A DNA stretch of 64,000 bases from Candidatus Tayloriibacteriota bacterium (lineage in GTDB: Bacteria > Patescibacteriota > Minisyncoccia > Phycocordibacterales > PALSA-1337). This document shows positions 646 through 46,102 of this stretch, in pieces; position 1 is the first letter of the stretch; each line of letters begins with the position of its first letter. The position numbers and the translations under genes are program-made. Under the pieces are notes generated by a model, which saw nothing but the letters and a program-made list of their open reading frames with translations, was not told the origin of the DNA and searched no databases. The stretch spans positions 7,203-71,202 of the forward strand of contig CAIOGI010000009.1 in the NCBI GenBank assembly GCA_903857825.1, given 5' to 3'.

Positions 646-975
646 AACTTTATTTTAACACGAGATTCAATTTGATTTAAATTCCTAGTACGCTCGTCTT
701 TCAAAATAGCAATAACATTGTGACCTTGAAAGGCGAGCGAGGATTGGAAATTTAGCTGTCAAAGTTCGTTAACATCATCATAAACAAACGCTTGTTTAAT
801 AGCAAGCGTCAAAATACGGCCTTTTTTATGGCCTTAATTCGCCTTTTCTTTCCACTCAACTTCCCCATCAAGCTGAAGTGTTTTTTGCCATATTTGCGGA
901 TCGTTGTTGATCCACCCTTACGACCTAGCTGTTGCGCTGCCTTGTTTTTCACATGTTTATTATAACAGACATAAA

Positions 976-1968
976 CTAGTAGTGAAGTGCTTTAGTTCTT
1001 GGCATTTTGTATTTTCGCATTCTTTGATTCCTTGGTACATTTCTGAATGCATCATATCGTCTCTGCAAATCGGGACCAGTCATCATGGTATAAATCATCG
1101 AGCTCTCCAAGCTGGAATGGCCAAGAATATTTGAAACATCTGAATTCGATCCGCCTTTGTTTACAATATCACGACCCATGAAATGTCTCATAGAGTGAGC
1201 ATTCAGAGTTGGTATGCCAGCACGGTTAGAATTTGTGCGTAACATTTCAGCAACTCCTACCACGGACATTCTTCGTCCTCTTACTGCATTTTGTCCACAT
1301 TTAGAGATCGATATAAATAAGGCATCAAGATCTTCAAAAGTAAAAAGTGAAAACAAATGTCTTCGTTTTTTGACCCATCTCTTTAGAAGAGCATTCGTGC
1401 TTGGTGTCCAGAATATTTCTCGGATCGGACGACGGCCACGAGATTTTTCAGTTCTGATCAGGGCTGTTCTCTTGCTCAAATTTAGGTCGCTTACATTGAG
1501 TGATAGTATTTCTCCATTTCTCGCGCCAGTATCCCATAGCAATGCCATCAGAGCACGATTTCTAATATGATGCGGTTTATTATCCTTCGGTATGGAGTTA
1601 ATAAGTTTTCTATATCCCTGTTCTGTTGCAATACGTGGTATGTTGTACTCCTTACGAGGAGTAGGTATAAGTGATTCGTTAATCACATTGAATTTCTGTA
1701 GGTTATAAAATTCAAAGAATTTCTTAAGCGCTAATGTGACAATAATTATGCCGTTCCGCTTCCAGCCGAGATCTTTCATCATATTCAAATAGTTCATCAC
1801 GTCATTGAGCGTGATGGATTCGATATGCGGATTACGCAAGTAGAGGCAAAATATTTTGAGAACCTTGTCATATCTAACTACGGTATGACTGGATACCTTG
1901 ATCTGTCTCCAATTGCTAAATTCATTTATTGCGTCTTTGAATAACATAATGGCAACCAAAAAGTCCAC
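976..1968 (-). CDS. int: tyrosine recombinase / phage-type integrase (XerC/D family)
   Basis: C-terminal catalytic motifs HSMRHFMGRDIV ... LGHSSLESSMIYT (R..H..R..Y). The ORF track uses GTG at 1968; an in-frame ATG at 1948 (MLFKDAINE...) is the more likely start. Confidence 0.85.
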   Translation of the reverse strand: MDFLVAIMLFKDAINEFSNWRQIKVSSHTVVRYDKVLKIFCLYLRNPHIESITLNDVMNYLNMMKDLGWKRNGIIIVTLALKKFFEFYNLQKFNVINESLIPTPRKEYNIPRIATEQGYRKLINSIPKDNKPHHIRNRALMALLWDTGARNGEILSLNVSDLNLSKRTALIRTEKSRGRRPIREIFWTPSTNALLKRWVKKRRHLFSLFTFEDLDALFISISKCGQNAVRGRRMSVVGVAEMLRTNSNRAGIPTLNAHSMRHFMGRDIVNKGGSNSDVSNILGHSSLESSMIYTMMTGPDLQRRYDAFRNVPRNQRMRKYKMPRTKALHY

Positions 1969-1996
1969 TCGATGCTACTCAAAGTGGACTTTTGGT
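1956..1996. promoter_or_regulatory. strong hairpin (14-15 bp stem, 12 nt loop) at the integrase 5' end
   Basis: accaaaaagtccact-cgatgctactcaa-agtggacttttggt. No T-run follows, so it is not a terminator. It overlaps the integrase start region. Confidence 0.4.
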
Positions 1997-2296
1997 GGCT
2001 GTCAGCTCAACGAGCATCTTGCCATTCCCTAGCTAGGGAGACGTAGTCTTACGACCACATCATTTACATTTTCCCCTATCCTTTCGGAAATAGCAAGGCA
2101 ATGTTAATCAAAAGTCCATTGGTAGCATCTGGCTAGAATAGCCTGATCCCTTTCGGGTACAATGGAATAATATTCGGTTGTCACTACATCCTAGTGTAGT
2201 GTCTAGCCATTGTCAAGAAGGATTATTCATTATGTAGTGTTGTTAAAGCAAAAATACTATATTGTCAATCAAAATAAGGGTATTTTGACCATTCCA

Positions 2297-2331
2297 TAAA
2301 AAAGTCGCAACGGTTTTTAGGCGTTGCGACA
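2297..2331 (-). terminator. rho-independent terminator downstream of ORF 2356-3372
   Basis: On the minus strand: GTCGCAACG-cctaaaaac-CGTTGCGAC followed by TTTTTTAT. Confidence 0.5.
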
Positions 2332-2355
2332 GATTTTTGACGGAATAGACACAGA

Positions 2356-3372
2356 TTAATCCAGTCTTTTCCGCATTTCCTTCAAGAACCAGATTACCTC
2401 GGTATTTAGGGTCGGCAGAGGCTCATTTGTGCCCACCTTTACTGGTATAGAGACCCTTGGATGGATTCCCAGAAGATCCCCTATCACGATGATCCGACCA
2501 CTTTCTTTGCTGATACGGTTGAATAGGTCGATTGCAACATTCAGGAAGGTGACTGATAGCTCCCGAGCATTCTCGGCAGGCATGCTTGTCCACTTTTCCA
2601 TCATACCAAATGGTAAAATGTAAGGATAGGCACAACTGTGGCTTTCCGCTGTTTGAACCGGCGCGAAGCTATGAGCTACATGCACACCGACAACACGTCC
2701 GCATCCAGGAACGAATGGGATAAGGTCGCGGTCGGCGATCCACTCGAACAGATTTTCGAAAGCATGAACGATCACGAGCTCGCCTTTGAAGGCTTTCTCG
2801 ATGACCGCCTTAGCCCCGATATCACAGAAGCCAACGATGACTGTAACAACATTTACGCCACGGGCTTCGAGCTCCTTGAGAATGTAAAGACAGGTATTGC
2901 CCCTGAATGCCCCTTCCTTGGCAAGAATCACGGGGCGGCCTGCAATTCTAAGGGTCAGATCGTCAAACTGCTTGTCGAGGTAATCAAAGCCTGGACGCGG
3001 ACCGTACCCGAGCATTTTGCCGTCCCTATCAAAGAGCCGGTTAATGCTTAGGTTCAGACCTTCCTGATTCGGATTCAAATCGTCCATCTCTGAGCAGGTG
3101 ACCAGAACGGCATGCCGATTATTCACAGCGATACATTCATGGACTTGATCCCAGATTTCTAACCTGAGATCATTCTTGTCGACGGGGTGAATCGCAGCAT
3201 TCGGAAATGCACGAGTTACCCTCTCGAGAAGACTTTGGTGCAGATGTCCGAATATTGGATCATCCAGATTCGGGACCGTCAGACCTTTCGATAGGAACGA
3301 TTGTAGACCGCTTGCTACGTCAAAGGAAACCACGCAGGTTCCCTGACGAGCTACTGGACTGGCAGATTGCAT
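2356..3372 (-). CDS. hypothetical protein (higher-GC gene next to the integrase); function not recognised
   Basis: 338-aa ORF with coding-like composition. No motif assignable with confidence. Confidence 0.45.
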   Translation of the reverse strand: MQSASPVARQGTCVVSFDVASGLQSFLSKGLTVPNLDDPIFGHLHQSLLERVTRAFPNAAIHPVDKNDLRLEIWDQVHECIAVNNRHAVLVTCSEMDDLNPNQEGLNLSINRLFDRDGKMLGYGPRPGFDYLDKQFDDLTLRIAGRPVILAKEGAFRGNTCLYILKELEARGVNVVTVIVGFCDIGAKAVIEKAFKGELVIVHAFENLFEWIADRDLIPFVPGCGRVVGVHVAHSFAPVQTAESHSCAYPYILPFGMMEKWTSMPAENARELSVTFLNVAIDLFNRISKESGRIIVIGDLLGIHPRVSIPVKVGTNEPLPTLNTEVIWFLKEMRKRLD

Positions 3373-3461
3373 AGGAACCTCCCTTTCTTGTGGTTGTTGA
3401 GTTGACTACGTTGAAAGAACACATCTGCTCTAGTCTATATTGGAATCAGCGAGAATGCTAC

Positions 3462-3779
3462 TTATTTATCCTCACCCTTGAGTCGCTCAATCATCATCTT
3501 GTATCCTCCACATCCTTCCTTCAGCCAGCGGTTGATCTTTGTAATGGTTACTGGAGATTCACCTGTTTCTTCTTGAATCTGTGTAAAAGGCACACCAGCG
3601 TAGAGTTTTTTAGCGACTTCCCAACGCATAGCGAATTCTCGGAGATCCCGTTCGCTCATAAGGTCTCGAAAAAAAGCTTTAAGTTCATCCTCGTTTTTGA
3701 TAGATAAAAAAGCCTTGAGCAAATCAGGAGATTTATTCTCTAATTCAGACCATATTCCATTTTTTTCTTCTTCAGTCAT
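3462..3779 (-). CDS. TrpR-like DNA-binding protein (YerC/YecD family)
   Basis: FRDLMSERDLREFAMRWEVAKKLYAGVPFTQIQEETGESPVTITKINRWLKEG matches the YerC/YecD TrpR-like fold. Confidence 0.6.
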   Translation of the reverse strand: MTEEEKNGIWSELENKSPDLLKAFLSIKNEDELKAFFRDLMSERDLREFAMRWEVAKKLYAGVPFTQIQEETGESPVTITKINRWLKEGCGGYKMMIERLKGEDK

Positions 3780-3884
3780 AGATACATTTTATCACTTGTT
3801 ATTAATCAAGCAAAGCCGACATGTTCAAATCGATATGAAATGAGGACATTACTCAATTTTTTATATATATGGTAATTATACCCT

Positions 3885-4187
3885 ATGCCCATATATAAAA
3901 TAGATCCGTTCAAGGAAGCAAGAAAGAACGCCCATATCTGGCGTGGCGAGAATGCCACCATCTGGTACAACGAAAAGCTTGATGGATCGTTCTCTGTTCT
4001 GGTGCTATACGAATTCGGGGATAAAAAACGCAGGCTTTTTTTGGAAATCAACGATCAGGATCGGCTTATAGAATTCAAAAATGATGATTTGCTATCGGAA
4101 CAATTTTCATCATTACTACAAGAAATTCTCACTATAGAAAAGTTAATTTCAAATTCAAAAGATTTGACTGGGTCTTTACCCTTCTGA
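3885..4187 (+). CDS. hypothetical protein
   Basis: 100-aa ORF, the only plus-strand gene in this block. No recognisable domain. Confidence 0.3.
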   Translation: MPIYKIDPFKEARKNAHIWRGENATIWYNEKLDGSFSVLVLYEFGDKKRRLFLEINDQDRLIEFKNDDLLSEQFSSLLQEILTIEKLISNSKDLTGSLPF

Positions 4188-4198
4188 TTCCATCACCC

Positions 4199-5233
4199 CT
4201 ACTGAGTCTGCTCAAATGAATAATTGACGCTCTGGCTAATCGAAGTATTTTTATTGCTAAAATAATTGTTAAATATAAATACTGCACCGATAATAGCCAC
4301 AACTGCAAGTCCGTTGGTGATAAGATCAGGATGTTTTAAATTAAAATTAATGGCAGTATGCAGAACCAACGCCAATAACACTATACCGAGAATAATATAC
4401 AATATAATATTGAATGAATGATGTGGTGAAGCGACGATCCGTTCAAAAAACGAAGGTTCATTTTGATTTTGAGAAGAGACTTGGGCATTATCTGAAGATT
4501 CAGAAATAACCTTATCAGGTATCGTCTGGGTCTTATCATTTGCTTCGGGAATAGCTGTTTCAGCACCTAGAACATTTTCTGTAGGCATATCAATAGCTAC
4601 CGATTGCGTAATAGCTTGAGTATGCACTTCGTCTTTATATGCCATAGCTACTGTTTTAGTTGGCTTTGGGTTTGCGTACACTTGGGCGATAAATACCGTC
4701 TCCCTGCCTTCAAACATCCCGGTTGCCACCCCTGTTCCGACCTCTCGGTATGATGCTTTTACGATGTTTGCCCGATGGGTCGGCGAATTCATCCAGGCTT
4801 TAGTGACATCTTCCGAATCAGTAAAATTAATAGCCAAATTTTCGCCGGCATAATCATATTGATACCCGACAGTATTTAGCCAGTGCCAGGGCGTTATTCC
4901 TTCTGGGCTCGTATGTGCAAAATATCCTTTTTTGGCCATGTCATCGGCTTTCAATTGAGCCGCTTCAGTCAAAAGCGGACTTACAACGAGATCAGGAAGT
5001 TTATTGTGTTCTCTTTCTTCATTTGTCAGGGTGGCAAGAACGGCTGGCAGAACACTAGCGAGATTGGAATTTTGAACAATAGCAACAAATGTTATAGTCG
5101 GTACAATGAAAGCAAGAAGTTCAAGAACCAAAACAATGCCGACTATAGATTGAGCGTTTTTCCCATGCAAAAAATGCGGCCGAAAGTCGTTTCCATGATG
5201 AGGTATAAAATGTTTTTTCAACCAGGAAATCAT
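4199..5233 (-). CDS. CAP/SCP/PR-1 domain protein with N- and C-terminal TM segments
   Basis: GYFAHTSPEG...WMNSPTHRANIVKASYREVGTG is the CAP (YkwD-like) signature. Hydrophobic N- and C-termini. Confidence 0.6.
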   Translation of the reverse strand: MISWLKKHFIPHHGNDFRPHFLHGKNAQSIVGIVLVLELLAFIVPTITFVAIVQNSNLASVLPAVLATLTNEEREHNKLPDLVVSPLLTEAAQLKADDMAKKGYFAHTSPEGITPWHWLNTVGYQYDYAGENLAINFTDSEDVTKAWMNSPTHRANIVKASYREVGTGVATGMFEGRETVFIAQVYANPKPTKTVAMAYKDEVHTQAITQSVAIDMPTENVLGAETAIPEANDKTQTIPDKVISESSDNAQVSSQNQNEPSFFERIVASPHHSFNIILYIILGIVLLALVLHTAINFNLKHPDLITNGLAVVAIIGAVFIFNNYFSNKNTSISQSVNYSFEQTQ

Positions 5234-5300
5234 ATCGTGTTCAATTATACAACAATCCCCCGCCCTTATAAAGATGCGGGGGATTGTATATAAAGCCTTA

Positions 5301-5732
5301 CTATCCGTTGATCTCTGCTCTGGTCAGAGGACCAAAGAATCCAGTGACATATCCGATGCCTGGATGTGCTGCTTGAAACGCTTTCAGCGCCGCAAAGGTG
5401 ACTGGACCGAAATAGCCAGTATCAGTGGGATGCTTGAAAAAGCCTTCAGCGCGGAGGAGTTTCTGGAGCTCCATCACCTCATTGTCTTGCATGCCCATAC
5501 GCAAGTCTTTTGTGAAGAGGAATGTCTCCGCTCCCAAGACTCGAGGGGTTGCAACTGTTACAACGGGCACAGGAACATACCAACCTCCACCACCGCCACC
5601 ACTACTGTAACTACCACTGCTGCTGCTACTGCCACTACTTCCGTAGCCGTACGCCGTACCAAAACCAACTGCTGAAATCAGCACAAGGCTAAGTGCTGTT
5701 AGAGTTGATTTTATGAATATTTTTTTGTTCAT
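5301..5732 (-). CDS. secreted peptidoglycan-binding domain protein with a Gly/Ser-rich linker
   Basis: Signal peptide, then a poly-G/S stretch, then a PG_binding_1-like region (MELQKLLRAEGFF...GYFGPVTFAALKAFQ). Confidence 0.6.
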   Translation of the reverse strand: MNKKIFIKSTLTALSLVLISAVGFGTAYGYGSSGSSSSSGSYSSGGGGGGWYVPVPVVTVATPRVLGAETFLFTKDLRMGMQDNEVMELQKLLRAEGFFKHPTDTGYFGPVTFAALKAFQAAHPGIGYVTGFFGPLTRAEING

Positions 5733-5854: not shown

Positions 5855-7363
5855 ATGCAAGAGTCAACTTATCCACAAACAAAAAGGACAAATCTAACAT
5901 ATGGCCTACTGGCTGTGTTCTCTGCCGTTCTGATCTTGGGCGGTTTTTTTCGACTCTATAATCTGGGATCTCAGTCATATTGGATGGATGAAGGATATAC
6001 AATCAACGCGGTCAAGGCGATCCAAGAAAAGGGTTCGACAATTCTTGATTCAGGTCTTCCTTATTTTTGTCCTATGTACTGTTATCCGACGGCACTTATA
6101 TCAAACGCCTTAGGTGCTTCGCCGACAAGTTATCGCTTACTTTCAGTTTTGACAGGTCTGGCATTCATTGTAGCAATGTTTTTTATTACGCGAAAATTGT
6201 TCAATCAGAATGTAGCCATGTTAACATCTGTAGCACTGACTTTTTCATATTGGCAGATCGCATGGTCGCGCCAAGCTCGCTGGTACACCCTGTTTGCTTT
6301 ATTCTTCTGGGTTGCGCTTTATTTTTTTCATCAATCACTTTATGGAGAAAAGAACAGAGCTTGGCATGGTATTTTTGCTGTCGTTTTCACTATCTTCGCA
6401 ATTATGACTCATGGCTTGGGATACCTCTTGCCCTTGATATTCATCGGCTGGATCCTGATTGATCGAATATTCTTAGGCAAAAAAATGAACTTTGGATACC
6501 TGATCAAGGTGATCAGTACCATAGTTGTCTTGGCTACAATCTCGCTAGTATTTCTATCGCAAAAGTTTGGAATTCATTATGAGCTTCCCTACTATGTCAG
6601 TTTTTACATAAGAGCTTATTGGCTTTTCTTGATATTTTTGATAATCGGATTCTTTGCGATTACGCATTCAATGAAACGAGAAATGTATTTCTTACTTTTT
6701 GTTCTATTATCGTATCTTATTCCTCTCTCATTTCTAACAAACATAGTCCATTACAGATACCTTTTTCATGTCACTCCAGTATTCATACTGCTTGGCACAG
6801 CTGGCATGTTAGCGATCAATGATAATTTGAAAAATAACTACACGAAATCATCATTTTGGATCGTACTCACTATCCTATTCTTTACTATCGGCGGCGGAGT
6901 CTTTATTCCACGTACTGAATATTTTTTGGAATCCGATAATCCAGAAACAATCGGTGAGAGACCATCGTACGCCTATACACCGCAACCAGATTGGAATGCT
7001 GCATATGAATTTCTCGAGATAAACAGAGAGGAGGGAGACATTGTCATATCAAGTCAGCCGCAATTTACCAAGATTTTTCTTAATGATCCAGGATATTGGA
7101 TCAAGTACGACTATCTTGGTTTTGCAGACCAGGTAAAGGAACCTACAGGCGACACTGAATACTATGTTGGAGCAAAAGTAATTGATGATCTACAGGAACT
7201 TCAGGTAATTGCTTCGTCTGCGCATGGTTTTGTTATATTCGATCATATGTCCGCGGATGGAAAGATTGCGGAAAATATTATCAGCTACATTCGAGACAAT
7301 TTCAAGTTGGTGTTTGAAAAAAAGACAAACCCTTGGTCAGAGGTGTGGATTTATAAATTCTAA
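5855..7363 (+). CDS. GT-C fold integral membrane glycosyltransferase-like protein (ArnT/PMT, GT39/83-like)
   Basis: Eleven or more predicted TM helices. The N-terminal loop YWMDEGYTINA resembles the polyprenyl-P-sugar dependent GT-C transferases. Confidence 0.5.
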   Translation: MQESTYPQTKRTNLTYGLLAVFSAVLILGGFFRLYNLGSQSYWMDEGYTINAVKAIQEKGSTILDSGLPYFCPMYCYPTALISNALGASPTSYRLLSVLTGLAFIVAMFFITRKLFNQNVAMLTSVALTFSYWQIAWSRQARWYTLFALFFWVALYFFHQSLYGEKNRAWHGIFAVVFTIFAIMTHGLGYLLPLIFIGWILIDRIFLGKKMNFGYLIKVISTIVVLATISLVFLSQKFGIHYELPYYVSFYIRAYWLFLIFLIIGFFAITHSMKREMYFLLFVLLSYLIPLSFLTNIVHYRYLFHVTPVFILLGTAGMLAINDNLKNNYTKSSFWIVLTILFFTIGGGVFIPRTEYFLESDNPETIGERPSYAYTPQPDWNAAYEFLEINREEGDIVISSQPQFTKIFLNDPGYWIKYDYLGFADQVKEPTGDTEYYVGAKVIDDLQELQVIASSAHGFVIFDHMSADGKIAENIISYIRDNFKLVFEKKTNPWSEVWIYKF

Positions 7364-7366
7364 AAA

Positions 7367-8497
7367 ATGAATTTGCTTAAATATCTGAACAGAGGTAAAT
7401 TAATCGTAATGAAACAATTTTGGAATAATGTCAAAGATGGTCAATGGCTCAAATCACATGCTTTTTGGTTAAGATTTTTTGCATACGGGATACCATTTGC
7501 TTTTCTTCTATATATGCTTTATTGGAACTTTTTGCCTTTCGGATACGATAAAGAGTTTGTTATAGATGTCGGATCACCTTCTGATATGTCTGGAGAATTT
7601 AGGCTTAAGCCGTCAGAGTACCTGTCGGATCGAATGTCTACCACTACCATGAATGGTTTTGTAGAGACTTGGAGAGAAATTAGTGGACCAATTTATGCAG
7701 TGTATAACCCTTCAGGAGTTCTTCGCGATAAACGCATGTATATTGATGTTGAAGGTGACAATGTTACAGTAATGCCGTTAGAAATTAGTGACGATTATAG
7801 TAGATATGACTGGGATTATATATGGGATTTCACACATGGTTCCAAACCAGCTGAATTTTATGGTAAAGCAGATTTTTTCTCAGATAACAGTACTCAAGCA
7901 TGTGCTTACTTTGACGGAAATTCGGGAGACCGGCTCGAGTTGTCAAATTCTGCCGATCTTTTTGAAGATCAGGCATTCTCTGTATATGTAAACTGGCAAC
8001 CAGATAACGACGCAACGAGTTCTCAACAAATTGTCGGACATTATAATTGGGAACTCTTTCAAAATCGTGATAGCGTTGTCTTCCAAGTAGGCAGAATGAG
8101 TAATCAGAATGGCCCTTTTTTCTCCATTCGGTATCCTGTCACTCCTGATTTTTTTGGGAGGAAACATGCAGCATTGGCTATATATAATCCCTCCAATGAA
8201 GACGGCCGTATTGATCTGTATATTGACGAACGATATGTTGGCAGGACATATTTTCAGCGGTTGAGAATATGGCCTGGCTATAATAGTAATCGAGATCTTT
8301 CTTTTGGTAAGAGCGAACATGGAAATGGTACATATTTTACAGGATGTATATTTAGATCCGCTATTATGAATGGAGTAGCAATCAGCGATAGAAAAAACTT
8401 ATCATATCGCATAAATGGTATGGGTGAAATCTCCATACCACTAATGACCACAGGAAGATCAGTAATCCGATCCGTAATTTTACGCGTCAATAATTAG
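7367..8497 (+). CDS. membrane-anchored LamG/concanavalin-A-like lectin domain protein
   Basis: One N-terminal TM segment. FSVYVNWQPDN...ALAIYNPSNEDGRIDLYIDERYVG matches the LamG jelly-roll pattern. Confidence 0.4.
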   Translation: MNLLKYLNRGKLIVMKQFWNNVKDGQWLKSHAFWLRFFAYGIPFAFLLYMLYWNFLPFGYDKEFVIDVGSPSDMSGEFRLKPSEYLSDRMSTTTMNGFVETWREISGPIYAVYNPSGVLRDKRMYIDVEGDNVTVMPLEISDDYSRYDWDYIWDFTHGSKPAEFYGKADFFSDNSTQACAYFDGNSGDRLELSNSADLFEDQAFSVYVNWQPDNDATSSQQIVGHYNWELFQNRDSVVFQVGRMSNQNGPFFSIRYPVTPDFFGRKHAALAIYNPSNEDGRIDLYIDERYVGRTYFQRLRIWPGYNSNRDLSFGKSEHGNGTYFTGCIFRSAIMNGVAISDRKNLSYRINGMGEISIPLMTTGRSVIRSVILRVNN

Positions 8498-8498
8498 A

Positions 8499-31243: not shown

Positions 31244-31247
31244 ATGA

Positions 31248-32748: not shown

Positions 32749-32829
32749 ACGTTATATTGCTTAATTGATAAAATCTGATATTTGTTTTTACTTTTCGGAA
32801 TGAAGGTAAAAACATACTCAGAGAAAGAA

Positions 32830-35137: not shown

Positions 35138-35159
35138 GGTTTTATTTATTTTTTATTAA

Positions 35160-37976: not shown

Positions 37977-39440
37977 TCATATAAGTCCGATTACTTCTGG
38001 ATTCTGCATTCCCTGCTGCACCAAGCCGAGAATAAGATACACGAGCGCATCGACGAGGTCGTCGTGTTCTTCGATTCCGAATCCGAGAAGCTGGATAATG
38101 AGATCTTCACAACCTGTGTGTGGAAAGACTACTGTCCCGTTTTGAATGTAGACGGCAACTGCTCGAAGCCTAGCCCTCTTGTCGCCCCCTGCCGTCATCG
38201 CAATTACTGGTAGGAGTGCACGCTCCATTTCTTCTATGGCCGCTTTCTGATATGCCACATTTTCCACAAAGAAAAGTGAGAAAGGATTCGCTGTAGACAT
38301 CGCTTTAGTTGTTTCTATCGTTTCATGGAATGAGAGACGTGCATTGAGCGGATTCGGCCTAATATATATTTTTGGTATACCGTCTTTTACGAATGAAGTG
38401 CCCGATACCATCGCAGTACAATCCGCGGTTTCTTTCTTGCTGATTGCCAAGTCGACTCCTGTCCCAGAGAGTCCAGTTTGCAGTTCCGGAGGCTCAATAT
38501 CATAATACTGAATCCATTCCTCTTTAATATCTGAACCTTCTTCAGGAACAATCTTGAGAAGATACTCCCTTTGCCATGCGGTTGCTCCCACCTTATCGCG
38601 CTGATCATCGAGTGCTTGCTTGGTAGGATATTTTGCTGACCATCTCGTTTTTTCATTCTTAATAAGTGCATACTCAAGATGTTTGAATGATTTGTATCTA
38701 TTCAGCCGTGCCATGAGTGCATCAGTATGGAGTTGGTTTCCGATAACGATAAGCCTTCCCTGTGCTTCGTCTATTGCAGGGATAATTTCCCCTCTCAGCC
38801 ATCTTTCCGTTTTATCTCTATTTTCTTTTGTACGAACCCATTCCAAATCTTCAGGGTCATCAATGATCACAAGACTCGGTCTGTTTTGTCTGTGACGAAG
38901 ACCTCTGACTTTCTGTCCTCTCGATCGGGCTAGAATGCGGACACCATTGGAGAGCAGCATGTTTTTTGCCTGCCATTCTTCTTCGCTTTCAAGAGTGAAG
39001 TCCTCACCGAACTTTCCCTTGATCTCTCCGTAGTCCTGCATAATGAGTGTATTATTTTCAAGCTCCTCCTTGATGTTTGCAATATTGATAGCCGACTGAA
39101 GTCCCGTATCAGCAATAGGTAGGATGAACGGATACAGGTCAGGATGTTCAAGAGCCGCCCACAACGGCAGAGCCAGGGACCCGAACGTTGATTTTGCACT
39201 TCCACGAAATCCCAAGACCTCGATCATTTTTTCTCTATGATCTCCTAGTGCTGTTAGAAGCTCATCATGGAAATCGGCGGGGGCTATGGTTAAATAATGC
39301 GGAAGATAAATTAAACAAAAGCCTTTGAGCGTACGCGCCATCTTACGGCGCATCTCATGATCATCAAGAAAACTTTTATTTTGCCACCACGATTGCAGTG
39401 GTTGGATTGGATCCATTGTTAGTGTTTTTTGTTTCTGCAT
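37977..39440 (-). CDS. terL: terminase large subunit
   Basis: Walker A GFRGSAKST, Walker B LVIIDDPE, C-terminal nuclease region. Confidence 0.85.
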   Translation of the reverse strand: MQKQKTLTMDPIQPLQSWWQNKSFLDDHEMRRKMARTLKGFCLIYLPHYLTIAPADFHDELLTALGDHREKMIEVLGFRGSAKSTFGSLALPLWAALEHPDLYPFILPIADTGLQSAINIANIKEELENNTLIMQDYGEIKGKFGEDFTLESEEEWQAKNMLLSNGVRILARSRGQKVRGLRHRQNRPSLVIIDDPEDLEWVRTKENRDKTERWLRGEIIPAIDEAQGRLIVIGNQLHTDALMARLNRYKSFKHLEYALIKNEKTRWSAKYPTKQALDDQRDKVGATAWQREYLLKIVPEEGSDIKEEWIQYYDIEPPELQTGLSGTGVDLAISKKETADCTAMVSGTSFVKDGIPKIYIRPNPLNARLSFHETIETTKAMSTANPFSLFFVENVAYQKAAIEEMERALLPVIAMTAGGDKRARLRAVAVYIQNGTVVFPHTGCEDLIIQLLGFGIEEHDDLVDALVYLILGLVQQGMQNPEVIGLI

Positions 39441-39951
39441 CTTCTTTTGAAATAATTCCCCAATTTACAAGGGCATCAAACATTCTCTGTTTTTGTTCAG
39501 GTTCGAGAGGTCTTGAGCGAGCCTCAAGTGCTATCTTTCCTATGTGTCGCTCGAAGATTCCCGCATCCATTTCCGCTCCAAGTATCGCAAGATCGAGTTT
39601 GATGATTGAATTGAGTGCTGCGATCTGGTCCTTGTAGCTTGGTGGAGGCATCCCTTCCTTTTTCAAATCGTCGGTATAGAAAGCGATGCGGACCAACCTA
39701 TCAACAACAATCCTTTGTCGCTCTTTGAGCTGTGCTATGCGACCCGACATTTGTTGCCTATCTACCTGTCGCGCCAAGTCTCCATTAATCTTCCAAATTA
39801 TTCTTGAAAGGTAGTGGAGATTGGCGATTCGTATGCCTTTTTTCTCAAGCGCATCTTGAAGCGAACGCAGGGAAATAAGAGGGTCGATGACGATAGCGTC
39901 TCGCACCGCCCGCATTATTTTTTCTTCTGCCGGTTTGAGAATCTTTGGCAT
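39376..39951 (-). CDS. terminase small subunit, candidate
   Basis: 191-aa HTH-like protein immediately upstream of terL and overlapping it. Confidence 0.4.
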   Translation of the reverse strand: MPKILKPAEEKIMRAVRDAIVIDPLISLRSLQDALEKKGIRIANLHYLSRIIWKINGDLARQVDRQQMSGRIAQLKERQRIVVDRLVRIAFYTDDLKKEGMPPPSYKDQIAALNSIIKLDLAILGAEMDAGIFERHIGKIALEARSRPLEPEQKQRMFDALVNWGIISKEDAETKNTNNGSNPTTAIVVAK

Positions 39952-39967: not shown

Positions 39968-41095
39968 CTATTTTCGTTTGACCCTTGTAAATACTAGCTT
40001 TTCCACGATCGCCTGAACGACGTTTACCGTTACCGCATTACCCAAGCACTTGTACCTTTGAGTGTCGCTTGCACCGAGAGTCCACTCGTCAGGAAAGCCT
40101 TGTAACCGTTCACACTCCATAGGCGTAAGGCGACGAATTTTCTGTAGCCCTTTGACGGCATACAGTCCCGTCTTCGCCCCAAGGCCTCCTGCTTGGCTTG
40201 CAAGAGTCGTGGCTATACCTCTTGCATCATATATTCGACTTCCTTGTGGAAAGTTACGACTAAGTTGTTTCCCATCATCAAGCCATTTCTTATTCTTCTC
40301 GCTCATGACAGCTCCGATATATTTCAAATCTTTATGTGCCGGTCTTTTACCAACATAAGTTCCGTTCGAGTCTGCGGTAACACGTGTCGTGATGGTTGGT
40401 AGGATAATATCCTCGCTTGCGTTTTGGGAGAGAGGAAATACTTCCGGTCTGGGCGTGCCTCTAAGATGTCCGACAATGAAGACTCGCTCTCTGTTCTGGG
40501 GTACTCCGAAATTCTTGCTGTTAAGCACCTGCCATTGGAGGTCATACCCAAGACCATCCAGTGTGCGGAGGATAATGCCGAAGGTACGCCCTTTCTCGTG
40601 AGAGAGAAGCCCTTTAACATTCTCAAGGAGTAGAAGCCGTGGTCTTTTGGTAGCGATAATGCGAGCAATCTCAAAGAACAATGTCCCTCGAGTGTCTTCA
40701 AAGCCCTTTCTCTTGCCGGCAATAGAGAAAGATTGGCAAGGAAAACCTCCAATGAGTAGGTCGAAATCGGGTAGATCTCTTGATTTGATTTTTCTGATGT
40801 CTCCATAATTTGTGTGCTTGAAATATTTTTCATAAATTTTGATTGCGTGTTTGTCGATCTCGGAGTAACCCACGCAAGTAAGCGATTCTTGTCGTAAGCC
40901 GTCGCAGTGATGGTGTTTGCAAGATAGTCCTCCCTCGGTACCAACTTCTTTAGACTTCTTGTATCCTTTACCACCCCGAGCCTTCGAAGTCGCTTTGCCT
41001 CCTCTGTCCTTCTTTCTGTTAACTGTTTCCACATATGCGTTGTGTATGCCGAGTTCGAAGCCTCCAATTCCCGAAAAGAGACTGAAGTACCTCAT
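39968..41095 (-). CDS. DNA cytosine-5 methyltransferase
   Basis: FSGIGG (I), GGFPCQSFS (IV), LLLENV (VI), QNRERVFIVG (VIII). A ~50-aa Lys/Gly-rich insertion with CKHHHCDG follows motif I. Confidence 0.9.
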   Translation of the reverse strand: MRYFSLFSGIGGFELGIHNAYVETVNRKKDRGGKATSKARGGKGYKKSKEVGTEGGLSCKHHHCDGLRQESLTCVGYSEIDKHAIKIYEKYFKHTNYGDIRKIKSRDLPDFDLLIGGFPCQSFSIAGKRKGFEDTRGTLFFEIARIIATKRPRLLLLENVKGLLSHEKGRTFGIILRTLDGLGYDLQWQVLNSKNFGVPQNRERVFIVGHLRGTPRPEVFPLSQNASEDIILPTITTRVTADSNGTYVGKRPAHKDLKYIGAVMSEKNKKWLDDGKQLSRNFPQGSRIYDARGIATTLASQAGGLGAKTGLYAVKGLQKIRRLTPMECERLQGFPDEWTLGASDTQRYKCLGNAVTVNVVQAIVEKLVFTRVKRK

Positions 41096-42402
41096 TGCTT
41101 TATTTTATTAATTCTCTCCCATCTATTGCGTATAACATCGCAGAACTTAGGATCAAGCTCGATCATGTATGCCCGTCGGCCGACCTTTTCCGCTGCAGCC
41201 ATTGTGCTGCCGGACCCTCCGAATGGATCGAGAACGATGTCATTTCTTTTTGTGGAATTGCGAAGCGCTCTCATTGCAAGCCAGTCTGGTTTCTCTGTCG
41301 GATGGAGATAATGAGCTACTGCCTTTCTTGGCATTTCCCAGACGTCGTATTCATTGTCGCCGTAAAATTTATGAGTGCCTTCTTTCCAGCCGTAAATGAT
41401 GCTTTGTGCCGTTTTTGGATCAGGCTTTTTTGCACGAGCTATCCATTCATGCTTGTAGCGATAATCATTCCATCCCATACTCGGCACGTTCTTCACCCAG
41501 ATGATCACTCCGGAATGCTGGAAACCATTTTGAAACATGCTTTGGAGAAATTGTGGATACGAGCTCCAACCTGAGCAGATGTAGAAGGAAGATCCCTCTT
41601 TAGTGTTGAAGAACATCTCATGGAAGGCTCCGTCTATAAATGTCTTGAAATCGGCGTCGTTCATATTGTCGTTTTTGATTGATTCATTGCCTTCGTCTTT
41701 TAATTTCTCGCCACGACTTTTATAGTTGACGTTGTACGGTGGATCAGTGAAGACCATATCAGCTTTTTCCTTTCCGAGAAGTTTTCTATACGTCTCTGGG
41801 TCGGTCGAATCTCCGCAAATCAACCTATGTGACCCGAGCTCATAAATTTCGCCAAGCTTTGAGCGTGGTTCCTTTTCAGATTCATCGCCTTCACCCTCAT
41901 CTTCCTCCTCGTCCTCAAGAGTCTGATCGAGTATCCGACTAATCTCGTCGTCTCGAAATCCTGAGGCGGGAATTGATGGAGATTCTTTGAGATCAACAAT
42001 TATTTCAAAGAGCTTTTTTTCATCCCACTTTCCCTTTATTTTATTTAGTGCAAGATTGAGGAGCTTTTCTTCTGCAAGGTGCAAATCCACGAGATTTGCG
42101 GGAATATAGGCCACTCCATCCTTGGTTTCTATGCCCTTTATAGCCTCACTTTGGGCCACAAGCCCCTCTACGGCGGTAGTTCTTTGGTGACCTCCTACCA
42201 GGACCCATTTTCGGTCGCCACATTCGTCACAGGTGTGAGTGTTTACCACAACAGACTCCACAAAGCCGAAGGTCTTGATACTTGTCTTCAAGGCCGCCAT
42301 TTCGATCTCTGGCATGATGCGGGGATTGTATTCAGCGCGCCTCAGGTCGGTTATTTTAATTTTGGTCGCTTCCATAGGTTTCTGCGAATTTGATTCGCGC
42401 AT
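41092..42402 (-). CDS. ParB-like nuclease domain fused to a beta-class N6A/N4C DNA methyltransferase
   Basis: N-terminus VLVGGHQR (ParBc). MVFTDPPYN (motif IV) precedes LDPFGGSGST (motif I), which is the beta-class order. Confidence 0.8.
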   Translation of the reverse strand: MRESNSQKPMEATKIKITDLRRAEYNPRIMPEIEMAALKTSIKTFGFVESVVVNTHTCDECGDRKWVLVGGHQRTTAVEGLVAQSEAIKGIETKDGVAYIPANLVDLHLAEEKLLNLALNKIKGKWDEKKLFEIIVDLKESPSIPASGFRDDEISRILDQTLEDEEEDEGEGDESEKEPRSKLGEIYELGSHRLICGDSTDPETYRKLLGKEKADMVFTDPPYNVNYKSRGEKLKDEGNESIKNDNMNDADFKTFIDGAFHEMFFNTKEGSSFYICSGWSSYPQFLQSMFQNGFQHSGVIIWVKNVPSMGWNDYRYKHEWIARAKKPDPKTAQSIIYGWKEGTHKFYGDNEYDVWEMPRKAVAHYLHPTEKPDWLAMRALRNSTKRNDIVLDPFGGSGSTMAAAEKVGRRAYMIELDPKFCDVIRNRWERINKIKQ

Positions 42403-42733
42403 TGATCTGGTCGACCTTTTCTTTTTCCTTACTTGTATTCACCTTGATTGCAGTAATTGTCTCATCACACGAAAGCGTAAATTCTTCGGCAGCCGCAATC
42501 TTTTTCTCGAGGTCTTTTCTTTTGACCCGAGTGACCTTCGTGGTATCGGCAAGATCGATCTTTTTGAATTCTCCATTGAGCTCATCGAGTTGCTGGAACC
42601 TGTCATCTCGGAGCTTTTCAATATCAGGAATCTTGGAGAGATCAAAGGCGATATTCATCTCCTTGCGCCAGACTTGTTCTTCAAGTTCTGCTAGGAATTC
42701 TTTTTTGTAAACTTTTATATTTTCTTTTGTCAT
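42356..42733 (-). CDS. hypothetical phage protein (coiled-coil)
   Basis: 125-aa ORF. Confidence 0.3.
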   Translation of the reverse strand: MTKENIKVYKKEFLAELEEQVWRKEMNIAFDLSKIPDIEKLRDDRFQQLDELNGEFKKIDLADTTKVTRVKRKDLEKKIAAAEEFTLSCDETITAIKVNTSKEKEKVDQINARIKFAETYGSDQN

Positions 42734-42738
42734 ATTTT

Positions 42739-43152
42739 TTAATTAATTGTGATAATTATTTCGACCCGACCTTTCCCATCCTTGGCGATTTCGCTTTTGA
42801 ATGAGCCGTCGAGATTCTTGTCGTTGTAAAAGAGAGCGTCAGCGATTGAGCCAAAGATATTCTCGGGATCGCCATGAGTGTTGTCTTTCCAGAAAATACG
42901 GATATCCATGACTGCTTTCTGACCCTCATCGAGCTTGATTGGTTTTTTGGCGACCCGCAGGGACCGCACGTAGACTTTGAAATCGATGCTTACGAGGGAT
43001 CGGAGGAATTCATCTTGGACATATACTTTCCATGCAGTGTATCTCTGAGCTTCTGGCGTCCACTGCTGCCGATATGTTTTTCTGATCTTCGGTATGGCAT
43101 TTCCCAGCCTGTCTTCCTGATTGCCGTTTAGTGTAAATGAGAATTGCTTCAT
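42739..43152 (-). CDS. RusA-like Holliday junction resolvase, candidate
   Basis: 137 aa. GDPENIFGSIADALFYNDKNL resembles the RusA catalytic D-x-DN region. Confidence 0.35.
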   Translation of the reverse strand: MKQFSFTLNGNQEDRLGNAIPKIRKTYRQQWTPEAQRYTAWKVYVQDEFLRSLVSIDFKVYVRSLRVAKKPIKLDEGQKAVMDIRIFWKDNTHGDPENIFGSIADALFYNDKNLDGSFKSEIAKDGKGRVEIIITIN

Positions 43153-43715
43153 GGTTTTTGATTAGTGGTTTTTAAAGAGAACCGATCCGTGAGATCCGCC
43201 CTGAGCCTTAAAAACTCAGGGCGGTTATCCACAGGTGGATCGGTCGAACCCCTAATACTAGGTTTCTCTTTGTTTCCTTGGTTTTGTGTGTCTACTAGGT
43301 AGACCGATTTTGGTCTATTCTTTAGACCACTTTTGGTCAATTTTCTAGACTGGTCTACTAGATTGACTACTTTATCCACAGCCATTTCGAGATTAATTTT
43401 ATAGAAATTCCCTTTGCTGTTTTTGATCGAAATGACTACCCCTGCACGGACCAGATTTTTGAGCCCTTGTGAGACTGACTGGCGGGACAATCCAGTGCCA
43501 TAATCAAGAACCACACCTCTCCGGTCCTTGATCCCTTCCATAAATTGCGAAAAACTAATGCGATCCGATTCCTTTTGAAAACCAAAGGTGCGACGGCATA
43601 TGTAAATTAAGCATCGTGCTTCAGCTTCAGGAATAAGAGGAATAATTTTGTCGAGAAGAATATTTGGTAACTGAGTGCTATTCGGTATTAAATTGTATTT
43701 TTTGTGTTCTTCCAT
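43149..43715 (-). CDS. replication initiator (phage replisome-organiser N-terminal-like wHTH); coding region contains ori-like iterons
   Basis: N-terminal YNLIPNSTQLPNILLDKIIPL..EARCLIYICRRTFG pattern. GGTCTA/TAGACC repeats and a 10-bp hairpin lie in its 3' third (43197-43370). Confidence 0.5.
   Translation of the reverse strand: MEEHKKYNLIPNSTQLPNILLDKIIPLIPEAEARCLIYICRRTFGFQKESDRISFSQFMEGIKDRRGVVLDYGTGLSRQSVSQGLKNLVRAGVVISIKNSKGNFYKINLEMAVDKVVNLVDQSRKLTKSGLKNRPKSVYLVDTQNQGNKEKPSIRGSTDPPVDNRPEFLRLRADLTDRFSLKTTNQKP
43285..43370. repeat. iteron-like cluster of GGTCTA/TAGACC direct and inverted repeats (candidate phage origin)
   Basis: tctactaggtagacc, ttttggtcta-ttcttt-agacca, ttttggtcaa, ctagactggtctactag. 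Confidence 0.45.
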
Positions 43716-43828
43716 TTTGATGAAGAAAGAAAGCGCCGGTAGGCGTTATCTTCCCTTGGCCTTCTGATCTCAATCCTCGTGCCGCTGCGGCGAGGACTGA
43801 GTCAGCGGCCAAAGTCAGCGCTTTCTCT

Positions 43829-44974
43829 CTATTTTGTTTTTGCCTTGGCCTCTGTTTTCTTGGCTGGCTTTTCGACCTTTGGTTCCGCTTGTTTCACCTC
43901 CGCAGCTTGTATCTGAATATGCTTCTGCACGAAGTCCTGGACTCTCTTGAATCCAGCTTCCAATGCTTCAGGTCGCAATGATTCGACTACCGTCCAGCTC
44001 ATGGTATCGAATGCGTATTTGATAGCGTCGATTTTGAGCTTCTTCTGGTCAGCAGATTGTCCTGGCCAAACAGAGACAAGATAGTTCTCGATCTCCTCAA
44101 GCCAACGCTTTTTCATCTGCTTCCACTCGTACTTCTCTTCCTCTGTTCGGAAGAGCGTTCCTGCATCACGTTCAGCGGTAGTCTCAAGTTTTTCGGGAGC
44201 TTCGAGCATCACATCGATCGCTGGTGCAAAGTCTTTGAAGTCAGGATTTTCGAATACCTTGCCATCGATTACTGTTGAACGGTCTTTGATGACAATGCCC
44301 TGTCTTGTTACCTTTTTAATCGAACCTCCTTCCATCTCCTGCATGCGTTCCATGAGGACAAGGAGATCTGGCTCGTAGGCTGTCTCTCCCTCGACCTTCA
44401 TCTTTATTCCCGACTTATAAATTTCTCTTTTTCCAGTTTCCTTATTGATCTCATTCTCATATTCATATCCGGCACGTCCGGTCATGATGATGTGATAAGG
44501 ATCGCGAACGAAGACATCGGAGAACTCTGTTTTCCATGTGGGTTTAATCACACCCCAGTCTTGGAATTCCAATCTGGTGCGTCGGACTTTCTCTGCGTAT
44601 GATTTGAGGAAGTCCTCCCAGACATGACTGATAGAGTCGATGATGAGAACATCGCTTGCGCCTTCTCTCATGCGGGTCATCGTTTCTTTGAGGTCGGCGA
44701 GGGATTTTGATTCGCGGACCATTACCTCGATTCCTTCCGCTGCAAACATGGATTTGAGGAACTTAGCCGCTTTCTCGGTGTCAAAGATAATGACTGGTTT
44801 CTTTGATCCGACTCTCTTATGTAGACCTATGGCAACTTTCGCTGCCGTGTAGGTTTTCCCCGTTCCGGCGAAGCCTTCGAAGGCTGCCTTGAAGTAGGGC
44901 TTGGTGTTGCCAATCAATGCGAAGAAGTTATCTTGCACTCTTGGCTTACCTGTTGTTAAATTTTGTGTGTTCAT
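43829..44974 (-). CDS. RecA-fold AAA ATPase (Sak4-like phage replication/recombination protein)
   Basis: Walker A GFAGTGKT, Walker B LIIDSISH. Lys-rich tail. Confidence 0.55.
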   Translation of the reverse strand: MNTQNLTTGKPRVQDNFFALIGNTKPYFKAAFEGFAGTGKTYTAAKVAIGLHKRVGSKKPVIIFDTEKAAKFLKSMFAAEGIEVMVRESKSLADLKETMTRMREGASDVLIIDSISHVWEDFLKSYAEKVRRTRLEFQDWGVIKPTWKTEFSDVFVRDPYHIIMTGRAGYEYENEINKETGKREIYKSGIKMKVEGETAYEPDLLVLMERMQEMEGGSIKKVTRQGIVIKDRSTVIDGKVFENPDFKDFAPAIDVMLEAPEKLETTAERDAGTLFRTEEEKYEWKQMKKRWLEEIENYLVSVWPGQSADQKKLKIDAIKYAFDTMSWTVVESLRPEALEAGFKRVQDFVQKHIQIQAAEVKQAEPKVEKPAKKTEAKAKTK

Positions 44975-45052
44975 TTTGGTTATTGACTTCCCGAGAGGTA
45001 TTTGAGAGAATGGATTTATCTTACGAATCCTATCTCTCCTCGCGGGGAGATT

Positions 45053-45346
45053 TTATTTTTTGAATAATTTAGTAATTCTTTTGTCTGCTGCGGTAAGCTG
45101 AACTTTTGTGGTCTGACCGATGATCTCACTTAACAATCCGTCATAGATGATTCCATGAGCCATAGTTATAGCTTTGTCATCTTCAGCATCGAGGTTAGTT
45201 AGCTTACCCATAAGTTCGCCCGTGTAATGGGCTACCTCGTCTAGTGCTTCAGGAAGGATCCGCTCATCAACTATCGACGGCGCTCTATCCTTCACTAGTT
45301 TCAATGCTTCTCTGGCCAATGCTTTCATTTGTGCTTGTGTTTTCAT
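45053..45346 (-). CDS. hypothetical phage early protein
   Basis: 97-aa ORF. Confidence 0.3.
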   Translation of the reverse strand: MKTQAQMKALAREALKLVKDRAPSIVDERILPEALDEVAHYTGELMGKLTNLDAEDDKAITMAHGIIYDGLLSEIIGQTTKVQLTAADKRITKLFKK

Positions 45347-45632
45347 GTGCGTATCCTATGATTCTCCGTCTGCGGATTTCTGCTTTCTCTCTGAGCATGG
45401 CTTGTCGCTCCTTACTGAGAGATGGGTTCTTCCGTAGTCGAATTTCTTTAGGTTGATAATCTATATCGATAACATCACCTATGTTCAATCGATATTTTCC
45501 TGTGAGCCATTTTCCTTCGAGGATGAGGGCGGGGATGCCATATCTTCTATAGGTAACTGCTCGAGTACTTTTATTTTTGTTTTTCATTGGTAGCATCTGC
45601 CGTTGTACATCGGCTGATCCCGTTAGGGACAA
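45285..45632 (-). CDS. SpoVT/AbrB-like swapped-hairpin DNA-binding protein, candidate
   Basis: GIPALILEGKWLTGKYRLNIGDVIDIDYQPKEIRL resembles AbrB/MazE-type barrels. Confidence 0.3.
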   Translation of the reverse strand: MSLTGSADVQRQMLPMKNKNKSTRAVTYRRYGIPALILEGKWLTGKYRLNIGDVIDIDYQPKEIRLRKNPSLSKERQAMLREKAEIRRRRIIGYAHENTSTNESIGQRSIETSEG

Positions 45633-45638
45633 TGATGA

Positions 45639-45998
45639 TTAGATTCCCTTTCCCTCTACCGCTTCATTAGCAAAATGGTTTTTAAGGAACTGATCTACAA
45701 GTTCACGCTTTCCTTTGCTACCTATGTGCCAAGTTGTAATCTCACAAATTGGCTGATCACTTTTGTATTCGTAGATTGTGACAATGGTTGGTTTTTTCAC
45801 ACCTCCAGTTTTGAAAGCCCATTCAACACGAACTTTACCGTCACCAGATTTCCACTCACCTTCTTGCGTGCAGTCATGTGGCTCTCCAAACTTTTCGACA
45901 AGCTGTTCATATGTAGCTTTTATGTAGCAGTAGAAACCAGATCCCCATACTTCCTTAAATTTAGCTTTTGCGAATTTAGAGTTAATTTTCATAATCAT
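45639..45998 (-). CDS. hypothetical protein (first gene inside the prophage boundary)
   Basis: 119-aa ORF. Confidence 0.35.
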   Translation of the reverse strand: MIMKINSKFAKAKFKEVWGSGFYCYIKATYEQLVEKFGEPHDCTQEGEWKSGDGKVRVEWAFKTGGVKKPTIVTIYEYKSDQPICEITTWHIGSKGKRELVDQFLKNHFANEAVEGKGI

Positions 45999-46039
45999 TT
46001 ATTGGTTAATAATTTCGACCTTTGTAGACGATTCCCGGA

Positions 46040-46066
46040 TATAGAAAAGACCCGGTGTTACCAGGT
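46040..46066 (-). terminator. rho-independent terminator ending the gap-cassette transcript before the prophage
   Basis: Minus strand: AAAGACCTGG-taacac-CGGGTCTTT then TTCTATAT. Located ~40 nt after the stop of fragment B. Confidence 0.45.
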
Positions 46067-46102
46067 CTTTAAATCAAATTATTAAGTTGTGAATCTTTGT
46101 CG

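Follow-up and report, generated by a model that had tools for sequence, protein, structure and literature searches.

Predicted siphovirus-like prophage bounded by copies of the gap 3′ end in a Patescibacteria genome

The window analyzed here is a 64,000-nucleotide stretch of contig CAIOGI010000009.1 from Candidatus Tayloriibacteriota bacterium (GenBank assembly GCA_903857825.1), and all coordinates given without a contig name refer to it. Positions 600 to 46151 hold a 45.6-kb element with the gene content of a tailed phage, which lies between two copies of a 13-nt core, ATGAAATGGGGTA. These cores (587 to 599 and 46152 to 46164) form direct att repeats at both ends of the element, and each sits within a degenerate copy, about 75 nt long, of the last 25 codons of the neighboring gap gene. 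The host gap gene itself, which encodes GAPDH (48030 to 49022, minus strand), is intact at 330 aa, and its last 25 or so codons (48033 to 48107) are the template of all the att repeats. The core is found again at 48079 to 48091 and, with one mismatch, at 47207 to 47219, giving four matches where 0.22 would be expected. Using tblastn, we identified five copies of the gap 3′ end in the window (E values 4e-3 to 1e-6), namely, the functional end at 48033 to 48107 and degenerate copies at 47161 to 47235, 46525 to 46599, 46106 to 46180, and 547 to 630. The last two, both on the minus strand, are attL (46106 to 46180, “...EMGYTYTLVNHVIAAGRLV*”), a phage-borne mimic of the gap 3′ end, and attR (547 to 630, “AWYRYEMGYTNILVEHLVKAGE”). 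A tRNA was rejected as the attachment site, the only tRNA (Gln, 60158 to 60229) being 12 kb away from the element. An original prediction, made from the sequence alone, had placed a prophage at 646 to 46102, within about 50 bp of the att cores; the role of the gap 3′ end as the att site, the repeat array that surrounds the element, and the host affiliation described below are additional to it.

Comparison with related elements indicated which of the two att copies belongs to the phage. attL shares an exact stretch of 41 nt with the gap end (“...EMGYTYTLVNHVIAAGRLV*”) carried by L009, a lysogen of a different species, and 38 exact nucleotides with the attP-like site of a relative (L107), and the copy at 46106 to 46180 is thus the phage's own arm. 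Since attL and attR have only the 13-nt core in common, this mimic was not shaped on the gap gene of the present host. The phage arm in these elements consists of substitute gap codons and a stop, with a hairpin (AAAGACC...GGTCTTT) just downstream (L009, 11030 to 11110; L107, about 13100 to 13180; window, about 46040 to 46065). In true gap lysogens, the hairpin, which is followed by a T-run in L009, probably ends gap transcription.

Close to attR lies the gene for an Xer-like tyrosine integrase (976 to 1968, minus strand; Pfam Phage_integrase, 1.4e-24), for which the NCBIfam XerA/XerC/XerD-like matches remained below the cut-off and which most assemblies call as a 323-aa protein from a downstream ATG. 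Homologues of the integrase with 53 to 60% identity adjoin gap-type att sites in L107 and in a second contig, L115. In an independent 38-kb prophage from IMG/VR (L110/L115), gap marks one end, and the 60%-identical integrase gene, with a 46-nt exact gap-end repeat after it, marks the other, which supports the same pairing of integrase and target. The integrase is preceded by a module (2356 to 3779, minus strand) that encodes a 338-aa protein of no known family (2356 to 3372) and a YerC/YecD TrpR-like small DNA-binding protein (3462 to 3779), a candidate regulator. In L107/L096, the homologues of the TrpR-like protein (74% amino acid identity), the 338-aa protein (50%), and the integrase (53%) are encoded directly upstream of the attP-like gap mimic and the early genes, showing that the integrase module belongs to the phage. 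The layout of two related genomes marks the block as an insertion: a homologue of a 74-aa gene comes immediately after gap in L010, and one of DUF6922 is found 0.9 kb past gap in L013, while the present host has both genes on the far side of attR. The intervening block is absent from the related genomes.

We then assigned the phage genes using Pfam, PHROG, PADLOC, and NCBIfam scans, and we give them here as they follow one another on the minus strand, starting near 46 kb and ending near 1 kb. The replication and early module (39968 to 45998) comprises three small early open reading frames (ORFs), an AAA_24 (Sak4-type) ATPase, a Rep_O-like initiator, a RusA-like resolvase, an N6/N4 methylase with a fused ParB_N domain (41092 to 42402), and a C5 methylase. 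It is followed by the head and packaging module (30417 to 39951), which contains a putative TerS (39376 to 39951, assigned by position only), TerL (37977 to 39440; phrog_38, 7.3e-65), a portal-MuF fusion (35160 to 37382; Phage_portal, 2.8e-62), an S78-like prohead protease (34016 to 35137; Peptidase_S78/phrog_80), an HK97-fold capsid protein (32830 to 34029; Phage_capsid, 2.7e-26), and gp6-like and gp10-like connectors (30417 to 32360). The stretch between TerL and the portal (37383 to 37976) is filled by two small ORFs. HK97 capsid, portal, large terminase, and prohead protease thus lie in one block, as in Caudoviricetes. In tblastn searches against GenBank phages, TerL reached at most 28.5% identity, with Mu-like and other headful-type terminases. 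The portal is a 740-aa protein in which the portal domain is fused to a Mu F-like head-morphogenesis domain, and this fusion, together with the Mu-like TerL, points to headful-type packaging. The small early genes (45000 to 46000) differ among samples of the same host (L097, L101, and L102), with products of 119, 115, and 97 aa compared with 117, 100, and 97 aa or 119, 103, and 80 aa. The array flanking the prophage is identical across these samples, and the variation suggests an exchange among co-circulating phage variants.

The tail module (22592 to 30214, minus strand) begins with the tail tube (29225 to 30214; Phage_tube_2, 7e-20) and a G/GT chaperone (28656 to 29206), in which a slippery GGGAAAT/AAATTTT site at 28883 to 28886 opens onto a −1 frame of about 80 codons. 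The 451-aa tape measure (27316 to 28671; tape-measure PHROGs), a 477-aa hub-like protein, a 161-aa fiber-associated protein, and three fiber paralogues with N termini in common (22592 to 25402) complete the module. There was no sheath gene: we found no ORF of more than 150 aa between the connectors and the tube and no sheath-sized gene up to the tape measure. As read from the genes, the morphotype would be siphovirus-like, with a long noncontractile tail. The fiber genes share their first 35 to 94 nt or so (72 to 91% identity), and two of the three contain tail-collar domains. Their distal parts are 38 to 69% identical between relatives, as expected of a host-range module. The lysis cassette (21129 to 22599, minus strand) consists of an endolysin with a papain-like peptidase and a PG_binding_1 domain (21339 to 22394), surrounded by two holin-like ORFs that were assigned by position only, one of 66 aa with one transmembrane segment (22399 to 22599) and one of 59 aa with two (21129 to 21308). 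Residues Q49, C55, H206, N223, and W225 are invariant in the endolysin family of about 200 members, with papain-like spacing, and some members match Peptidase_C1; this set accounts for the catalytic function of the enzyme. PDB sequence searches with the 338-aa protein, the 477-aa hub-like protein, and the endolysin returned nothing significant.

Together, these assignments support the original prediction of a complete siphovirus-like prophage. Functions for morphogenesis, packaging, lysis, replication, and integration are all present without a sheath-sized gene, both junctions recur independently, and no core gene is visibly disrupted, the roughly 45 phage genes all being open, with small ORFs in every gap. 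The predicted gene order was essentially right as well, apart from the label “Dit-like,” which we could not verify for the protein encoded after the tape measure: the 477-aa product gave only weak matches to baseplate-hub (7e-5) and VgrG-related (3e-3) families.

Between the lysis genes and the TrpR-like/integrase module lies a cargo region of about 16 kb. Next to the integrase module are genes for a CAP-domain protein (4199 to 5233) and a PG_binding_1 protein (5301 to 5732), both on the minus strand and with a phage-like GC content of 40 to 50%. The adjoining glycan-synthesis cluster (5855 to 14705) encodes a PMT_2 (GT-C) transferase, two large proteins of 376 and 647 aa that match no family, a Wzx-like flippase, and three glycosyltransferases (GT2, GT4, and GT2), and it is contiguous with the phage in many assemblies. 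This cluster had been predicted as glycosylation cargo, which our analysis bears out, but the restriction-modification (R-M) and defense island that forms the rest of the cargo had been overlooked. The defense-type part (14780 to 16847, minus strand) encodes a DUF559 (Vsr-like) protein, a Cas4-like PD-(D/E)XK nuclease (PADLOC Cas4, 2.7e-07), and PDC-S18 (NucS_C plus DUF5655; PADLOC, 1.7e-83), a candidate single-gene defense. The Cas4-like nuclease is 84% identical to the product of a gene at 17673 to 18422 of L122, another IMG/VR phage contig (49% GC), where it lies some 6.6 kb downstream of the endolysin gene.

The type II R-M cassette (16941 to 20948) consists of a restriction endonuclease (16941 to 18323, plus strand), a Dam-family methylase (18320 to 19441, minus strand), and a fusion of LexA_DNA_bind, Peptidase_S24, and Dam domains (19443 to 20948, minus strand); PADLOC recognized REase_II (4.8e-59) and, twice, MTase_II (2.6e-94). 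The LexA-Dam fusion is 501 aa long from the ATG at 20948, and an exact-protein look-up matched the ATG start and not the TTG start. Its sequence contains a helix-turn-helix, an “IAAG” (Ala-Gly) cleavage site, the “GSSM” catalytic Ser, and the “LKK” catalytic Lys, which suggests that control of the R-M system may be tied to RecA-type self-cleavage. The architecture is found in at least 57 protein clusters, of which all named ones are from Patescibacteria and carry the NCBI label “LexA,” and a literature search for LexA-methylase fusions gave nothing relevant. In four further contigs (L117 to L120), the module of LexA-Dam, second Dam, and convergent endonuclease is kept in ordinary, nonphage chromosomal contexts, which argues for a mobile R-M cassette captured by the phage and not for a phage repressor. 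We accordingly rejected the LexA-like domain as a CI-type repressor; in L107, the 10 kb preceding the TrpR-like gene contain no such domain either. Just upstream of LexA-Dam, at 20975 to 21005 on the minus strand, lies a near-consensus promoter (TTGCTT, 17-nt spacer, TATAAT), and the cassette probably brings its own promoter. In L107, the slot upstream of the TrpR-like gene holds different genes, encoding a ResIII/AlwI-like enzyme, two methylases, NOV_C, DUF3644, and an S49 peptidase. The slot is thus a variable cargo site, and its cargo was captured separately, as one of the two predicted origins had it; the entirely different restriction and defense genes of this relative and the nonphage contexts of the LexA-Dam module both agree with that origin.

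To describe the base composition, we used a sliding 1-kb GC profile together with GC and third-codon-position GC (GC3) values for each region. The phage core (21009 to 46105) has 45.1% GC and 43.7% GC3, with single 1-kb windows of up to 47 to 53%, while the host flank (46181 to 64000) has 36.0% GC and 30.4% GC3. The cargo resembles the flank, at 36.8% for the restriction and defense genes (14780 to 21008) and 36.7% for the glycan cluster, and the integrase-proximal block (2356 to 5732) is phage-like again at 43.8%. The profile thus steps and is not uniform, and the predicted contrast of about 48% with 30 to 35% is real at about 9 points, though slightly exaggerated in its figures. Among contigs with an endolysin of this family, GC content varies between 38 and 54%. 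The excess of the core probably reflects a lineage of phages that moves among Paceibacteria hosts of differing GC and is not adapted to the present one, and the cargo slot has probably been filled with low-GC DNA from Patescibacteria-like donors. Host amelioration, which had also been proposed for the cargo, is not needed to explain its composition.

The host GAPDH is 88% identical to that of Paceibacteria metagenome-assembled genomes (MAGs), and the 70 or more best genomic matches were all from Patescibacteria. The host is thus a member of the Patescibacteria, or candidate phyla radiation (CPR), and most likely of the class Paceibacteria. Close relatives of the phage come from other samples and hosts, with core proteins 85 to 99% identical; among IMG/VR contigs and L009, identities reach 84 to 97% for the portal, 90 to 98% for the capsid, and up to 99.7% for AAA_24. 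Several of these relatives sit directly after gap in Paceibacteria hosts whose GAPDH is only 67 to 75% identical. In the comparison with L009, the DNA of the phage core is 84.6% identical over 7.9 kb, while gap and DHODH are only about 70% identical. The position of relatives after gap in divergent hosts, together with the contiguity of integrase, attP-like site, and early genes in L107, supports a phage lineage that moves between hosts. These comparisons, and a gap mimic that matches the host copy over only 13 nt, also agree with the prediction that the core was recently acquired or has a broader host range. Megablast of the region from 21.2 to 46.1 kb against 50,697 GenBank phage records gave no match, which, with the maximum of 28.5% for TerL, means that the element has no close relative among isolated phages. 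In IMG/VR, queries with the integrase and with LexA-Dam likewise found no close relatives.

Prophages of this kind were reported for Paceibacteria in 2025, in MAGs nzgw467, nzgw468, and nzgw482 of family UBA5272 (mSystems 2025, PMC12455944). They average 43.7 kb and carry a C5 cytosine methylase and a group 1 glycosyltransferase described as “auxiliary” genes, all as predictions, and the paper makes no mention of an attachment site, gap, integrase specificity, host range, or R-M cargo (PMC12455944). The present element shares with them the host class, a similar size, and C5 methylase and GT1 genes. In contig L030 of MAG nzgw482, early genes 59 to 75% identical to those in the window lie directly after gap, and the element there is a distant relative and not the same phage. 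A targeted literature search found no description of gap as an att site in CPR phages.

Taking junctions, gene content, and relatives together, we consider it likely that the stretch from 600 to 46151 is the integrated genome of a temperate HK97-fold phage with a noncontractile tail (siphovirus-like) in a Patescibacteria host. Integration would have occurred when the Xer-like tyrosine integrase recombined attP, a mimic of about 75 nt of the last 25 gap codons and the stop codon that is followed in relatives by a terminator hairpin, with one of the gap 3′ copies in the chromosome, the crossover presumably falling within or close to the 13-nt core ATGAAATGGGGTA. This phage lineage inserts into the real gap gene of other hosts and swaps its last 19 or so codons for the phage version; in the present host, a downstream pseudo-copy appears to have been used, so that gap itself stayed intact. 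The phage genome would then read attP, early, replication, and methylase genes, headful-type packaging, head, tail, lysis, the variable cargo slot, the TrpR-like, 338-aa, and integrase genes, and attP. In the lysogen, the R-M, PDC-S18, and Cas4-like genes could plausibly give protection from other phages, and the glycan cluster could remodel the cell surface in a form of lysogenic conversion.

Several observations weigh against a phage that is still active. We reconstructed the junctions of the excised phage (attP, ...GTACCGATATGAAATGGGGTACACATACACC...) and of the empty site (attB, ...GGCATATTGATGAAATGGGGTATACGAATATT...), and exact-pattern searches of JGI metagenome contigs and IMG/VR, a part of public data, returned neither form for the present phage. 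The prophage is present in every contig read of this host population with no phage-free allele, and may be fixed; attL and attR are exactly identical over 13 nt only; and family scans of the early region recognized no CI-type repressor, Cro, or excisionase, leaving the conserved YerC/TrpR-like protein beside the integrase as the sole regulator candidate for lysogeny. In addition, TerS and the holins rest on position only, and the contiguity seen in the 59.9-kb L107 contig could reflect two tandem elements in place of a circular genome. The absence of an empty site or attP from the exact searches, the presence of the prophage in all sampled contigs, the use of a pseudo-site with a 13-nt common core, and the lack of a recognized repressor or excisionase would all fit a domesticated or defective prophage whose frames are intact but which has lost excision and is kept by the host for its R-M, defense, and glycan genes. 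We regard this as improbable, though worth serious consideration, given that all of the roughly 45 phage genes have open frames, that every gap is taken up by small ORFs, that the core keeps 85 to 99% protein identity with relatives from other samples and hosts, and that the early region differs among samples of the same host, suggesting ongoing exchange. The attP and attB searches, moreover, were exact-match only and covered part of public data. For the temperate prophage, we infer a present-day ability to excise.

The sharp GC step at about 21 kb and the occurrence of the R-M cassette alone in other chromosomes could also be explained by two tandem elements, with a phage at about 21 to 46 kb and an unrelated integrative island at 0.6 to 21 kb that owns the integrase and the low-GC cargo. 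This arrangement is very improbable: neither a gap 3′ copy nor the core occurs anywhere in 631 to 46105, the block at 2356 to 5732 has phage-like GC, and a relative with 85 to 98% identical structural genes carries the TrpR-like, 338-aa, and integrase genes directly upstream of its attP-like site and early genes, with other cargo in the same slot. With an internal att copy absent, we rejected the tandem-island model. A further possibility, which has next to no likelihood, is that the common gap-like sequence led an assembler to fuse a contig of free phage with host DNA. The att repeats, short and common to phage and host, could mislead assemblers in this way, and the window is 100% identical over the compared 18.5 kb to metagenome contig ERZ27313478 k141_454393. 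Such an assembly chimera is ruled out by the recurrence of both junctions in independently made assemblies (ENA, JGI, and Logan) that differ in sample and pipeline. The repeat identity of 13 to 40 nt also lies below typical k-mers, and related prophages with the same junction type are present in GenBank MAGs.

The att site of the prophage is one of eight gap 3′ copies of about 75 nt in the present host, five in the window and three just to its left (L116, 371 to 445, 2198 to 2275, and 2488 to 2535). They delimit an array in the order gap, ORF224, ORF147, ORF112, prophage, a 200-aa gene, the 74-aa gene, a 426-aa plus 105-aa pair, and DUF6922-AbiEii, and this array is the same in all samples of the host and thus fixed. 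Three nonphage, single-ORF cassettes lie between gap and the prophage (46177 to 48107, minus strand), namely, ORF112 (46177 to 46515), ORF147 (46706 to 47149), and ORF224 (47352 to 48026), and each is preceded by a gap 3′ copy (46525 to 46599, 47161 to 47235, and the functional gap end at 48033 to 48107, respectively). ORF224 has no homologue besides itself and its own cluster among 5.8 billion clusters. The units mostly comprise one to three tightly packed genes oriented like gap, with the first ORF about 10 to 20 nt past the stop of the copy and the unit ending at the next copy. The last cassette seen, to the left of the window (L116, 1 to 270), is the DUF6922/AbiEii pair, which is of toxin-antitoxin type. 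Arrays of 2 to 5 copies after gap are present in at least six other Paceibacteria genomes (L006, L010, L013 [10949 to 14593], L028, L040, and L073), and homologous 74-aa and DUF6922-AbiEii units occupy different array positions in different genomes.

One possibility, which we put forward tentatively and hold to be somewhat doubtful, is that this phage family uses its Xer-like integrases to insert and rearrange small integrase-less cassettes downstream of gap, a presumably strongly expressed gene, and that the prophage is the largest unit. If so, the array would be an integron-like or CIME-like (cis-mobilizable element-like) gene-capture platform in genome-reduced CPR bacteria. The units could also be the decayed relics of old prophages or earlier integrations, but their tight packing argues somewhat against random decay. 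The array is not an integron, as the integrase scores 43.7 bits against an integron-integrase cut-off of 265 and the repeats are coding 3′-end copies and not attC.

Comparable use of a metabolic gene is known from lambdoid phage 21 and element e14, which integrate in the 3′ end of icd in Escherichia coli by means of a tyrosine integrase, with a substitute 3′ end that keeps the gene functional. The present prophage likewise combines a tyrosine integrase, the 3′ end of a central-metabolism gene, and a substitute 3′ end carried by the element; it differs from phage 21 and e14 in its target, gap, in its Xer-like integrase clade and host phylum, and in that the site used is a downstream pseudo-copy, one of eight. 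In Streptococcus thermophilus, ICESt1, ICESt3, and CIMEs accrete at the 3′ end of fda, and Xer-dependent dif/pdif modules and integron cassettes are comparable systems. Like ICESt1/ICESt3 and the CIMEs, the array has tandem integrase-less units between att-type repeats at the 3′ end of a glycolytic gene, beside a complete recombinase-encoding element. Unlike ICESt1/CIME, dif/pdif, and integron systems, its units are mostly of one to three packed genes that are all oriented like gap, its repeats are coding 3′-end copies and not attC or dif, and the mobility of its units is hypothetical.

The cargo also has known counterparts. Serotype-converting temperate phages such as P22 or SfV carry gtrABC and modify the O antigen, and the present element is similar in having glycan-modifying genes at its integrase/att end, presumably altering the lysogen surface. 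It differs in the size and content of its 9-kb cluster, with a Wzx-like flippase, GT2/GT4/GT2, a PMT_2 GT-C protein, and two large unknowns, and in its CPR host; Pfam and NCBIfam scans found no GtrA or GtrB family of a gtr-type cassette. DpnII-type type II R-M systems contain two Dam-family methylases, and the R-M cassette resembles them in its two adjacent D12-class methylases and type II endonuclease, but its first methylase has a full LexA-like N terminus and its endonuclease does not match the Pfam DpnII family.

CPR bacteria (Patescibacteria) are a large and mostly uncultured group with genomes of about 1 Mb, of which the 45.6-kb prophage and the cassettes would make up several percent. 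The locus offers a defined integrase, a defined attP, and a conserved target, the last 25 or so gap codons, that is common to several Paceibacteria lineages, and it could serve studies of host range and, at a later stage, the design of integration vectors for a group without genetic tools. It also suggests that low-GC defense and surface-glycan genes are carried between these organisms by a phage of nonhost composition, and the gap 3′ repeat arrays hint at a wider gene-capture mechanism. The gap 3′ target, the cross-host distribution, the LexA-fused methylase, and the repeat-delimited cassette arrays are all worth following.

Among the remaining observations, the gene for the 338-aa protein (window, 2356 to 3372; L107, 10001 to 10996), which lies between the TrpR-like gene and the integrase gene, has a GC content of 50%, among the highest in the element. 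A stretch of its product, “GRPVILAKEGAFRGNT,” looks by eye like a nucleotide-binding loop of the phosphoribosyltransferase type.

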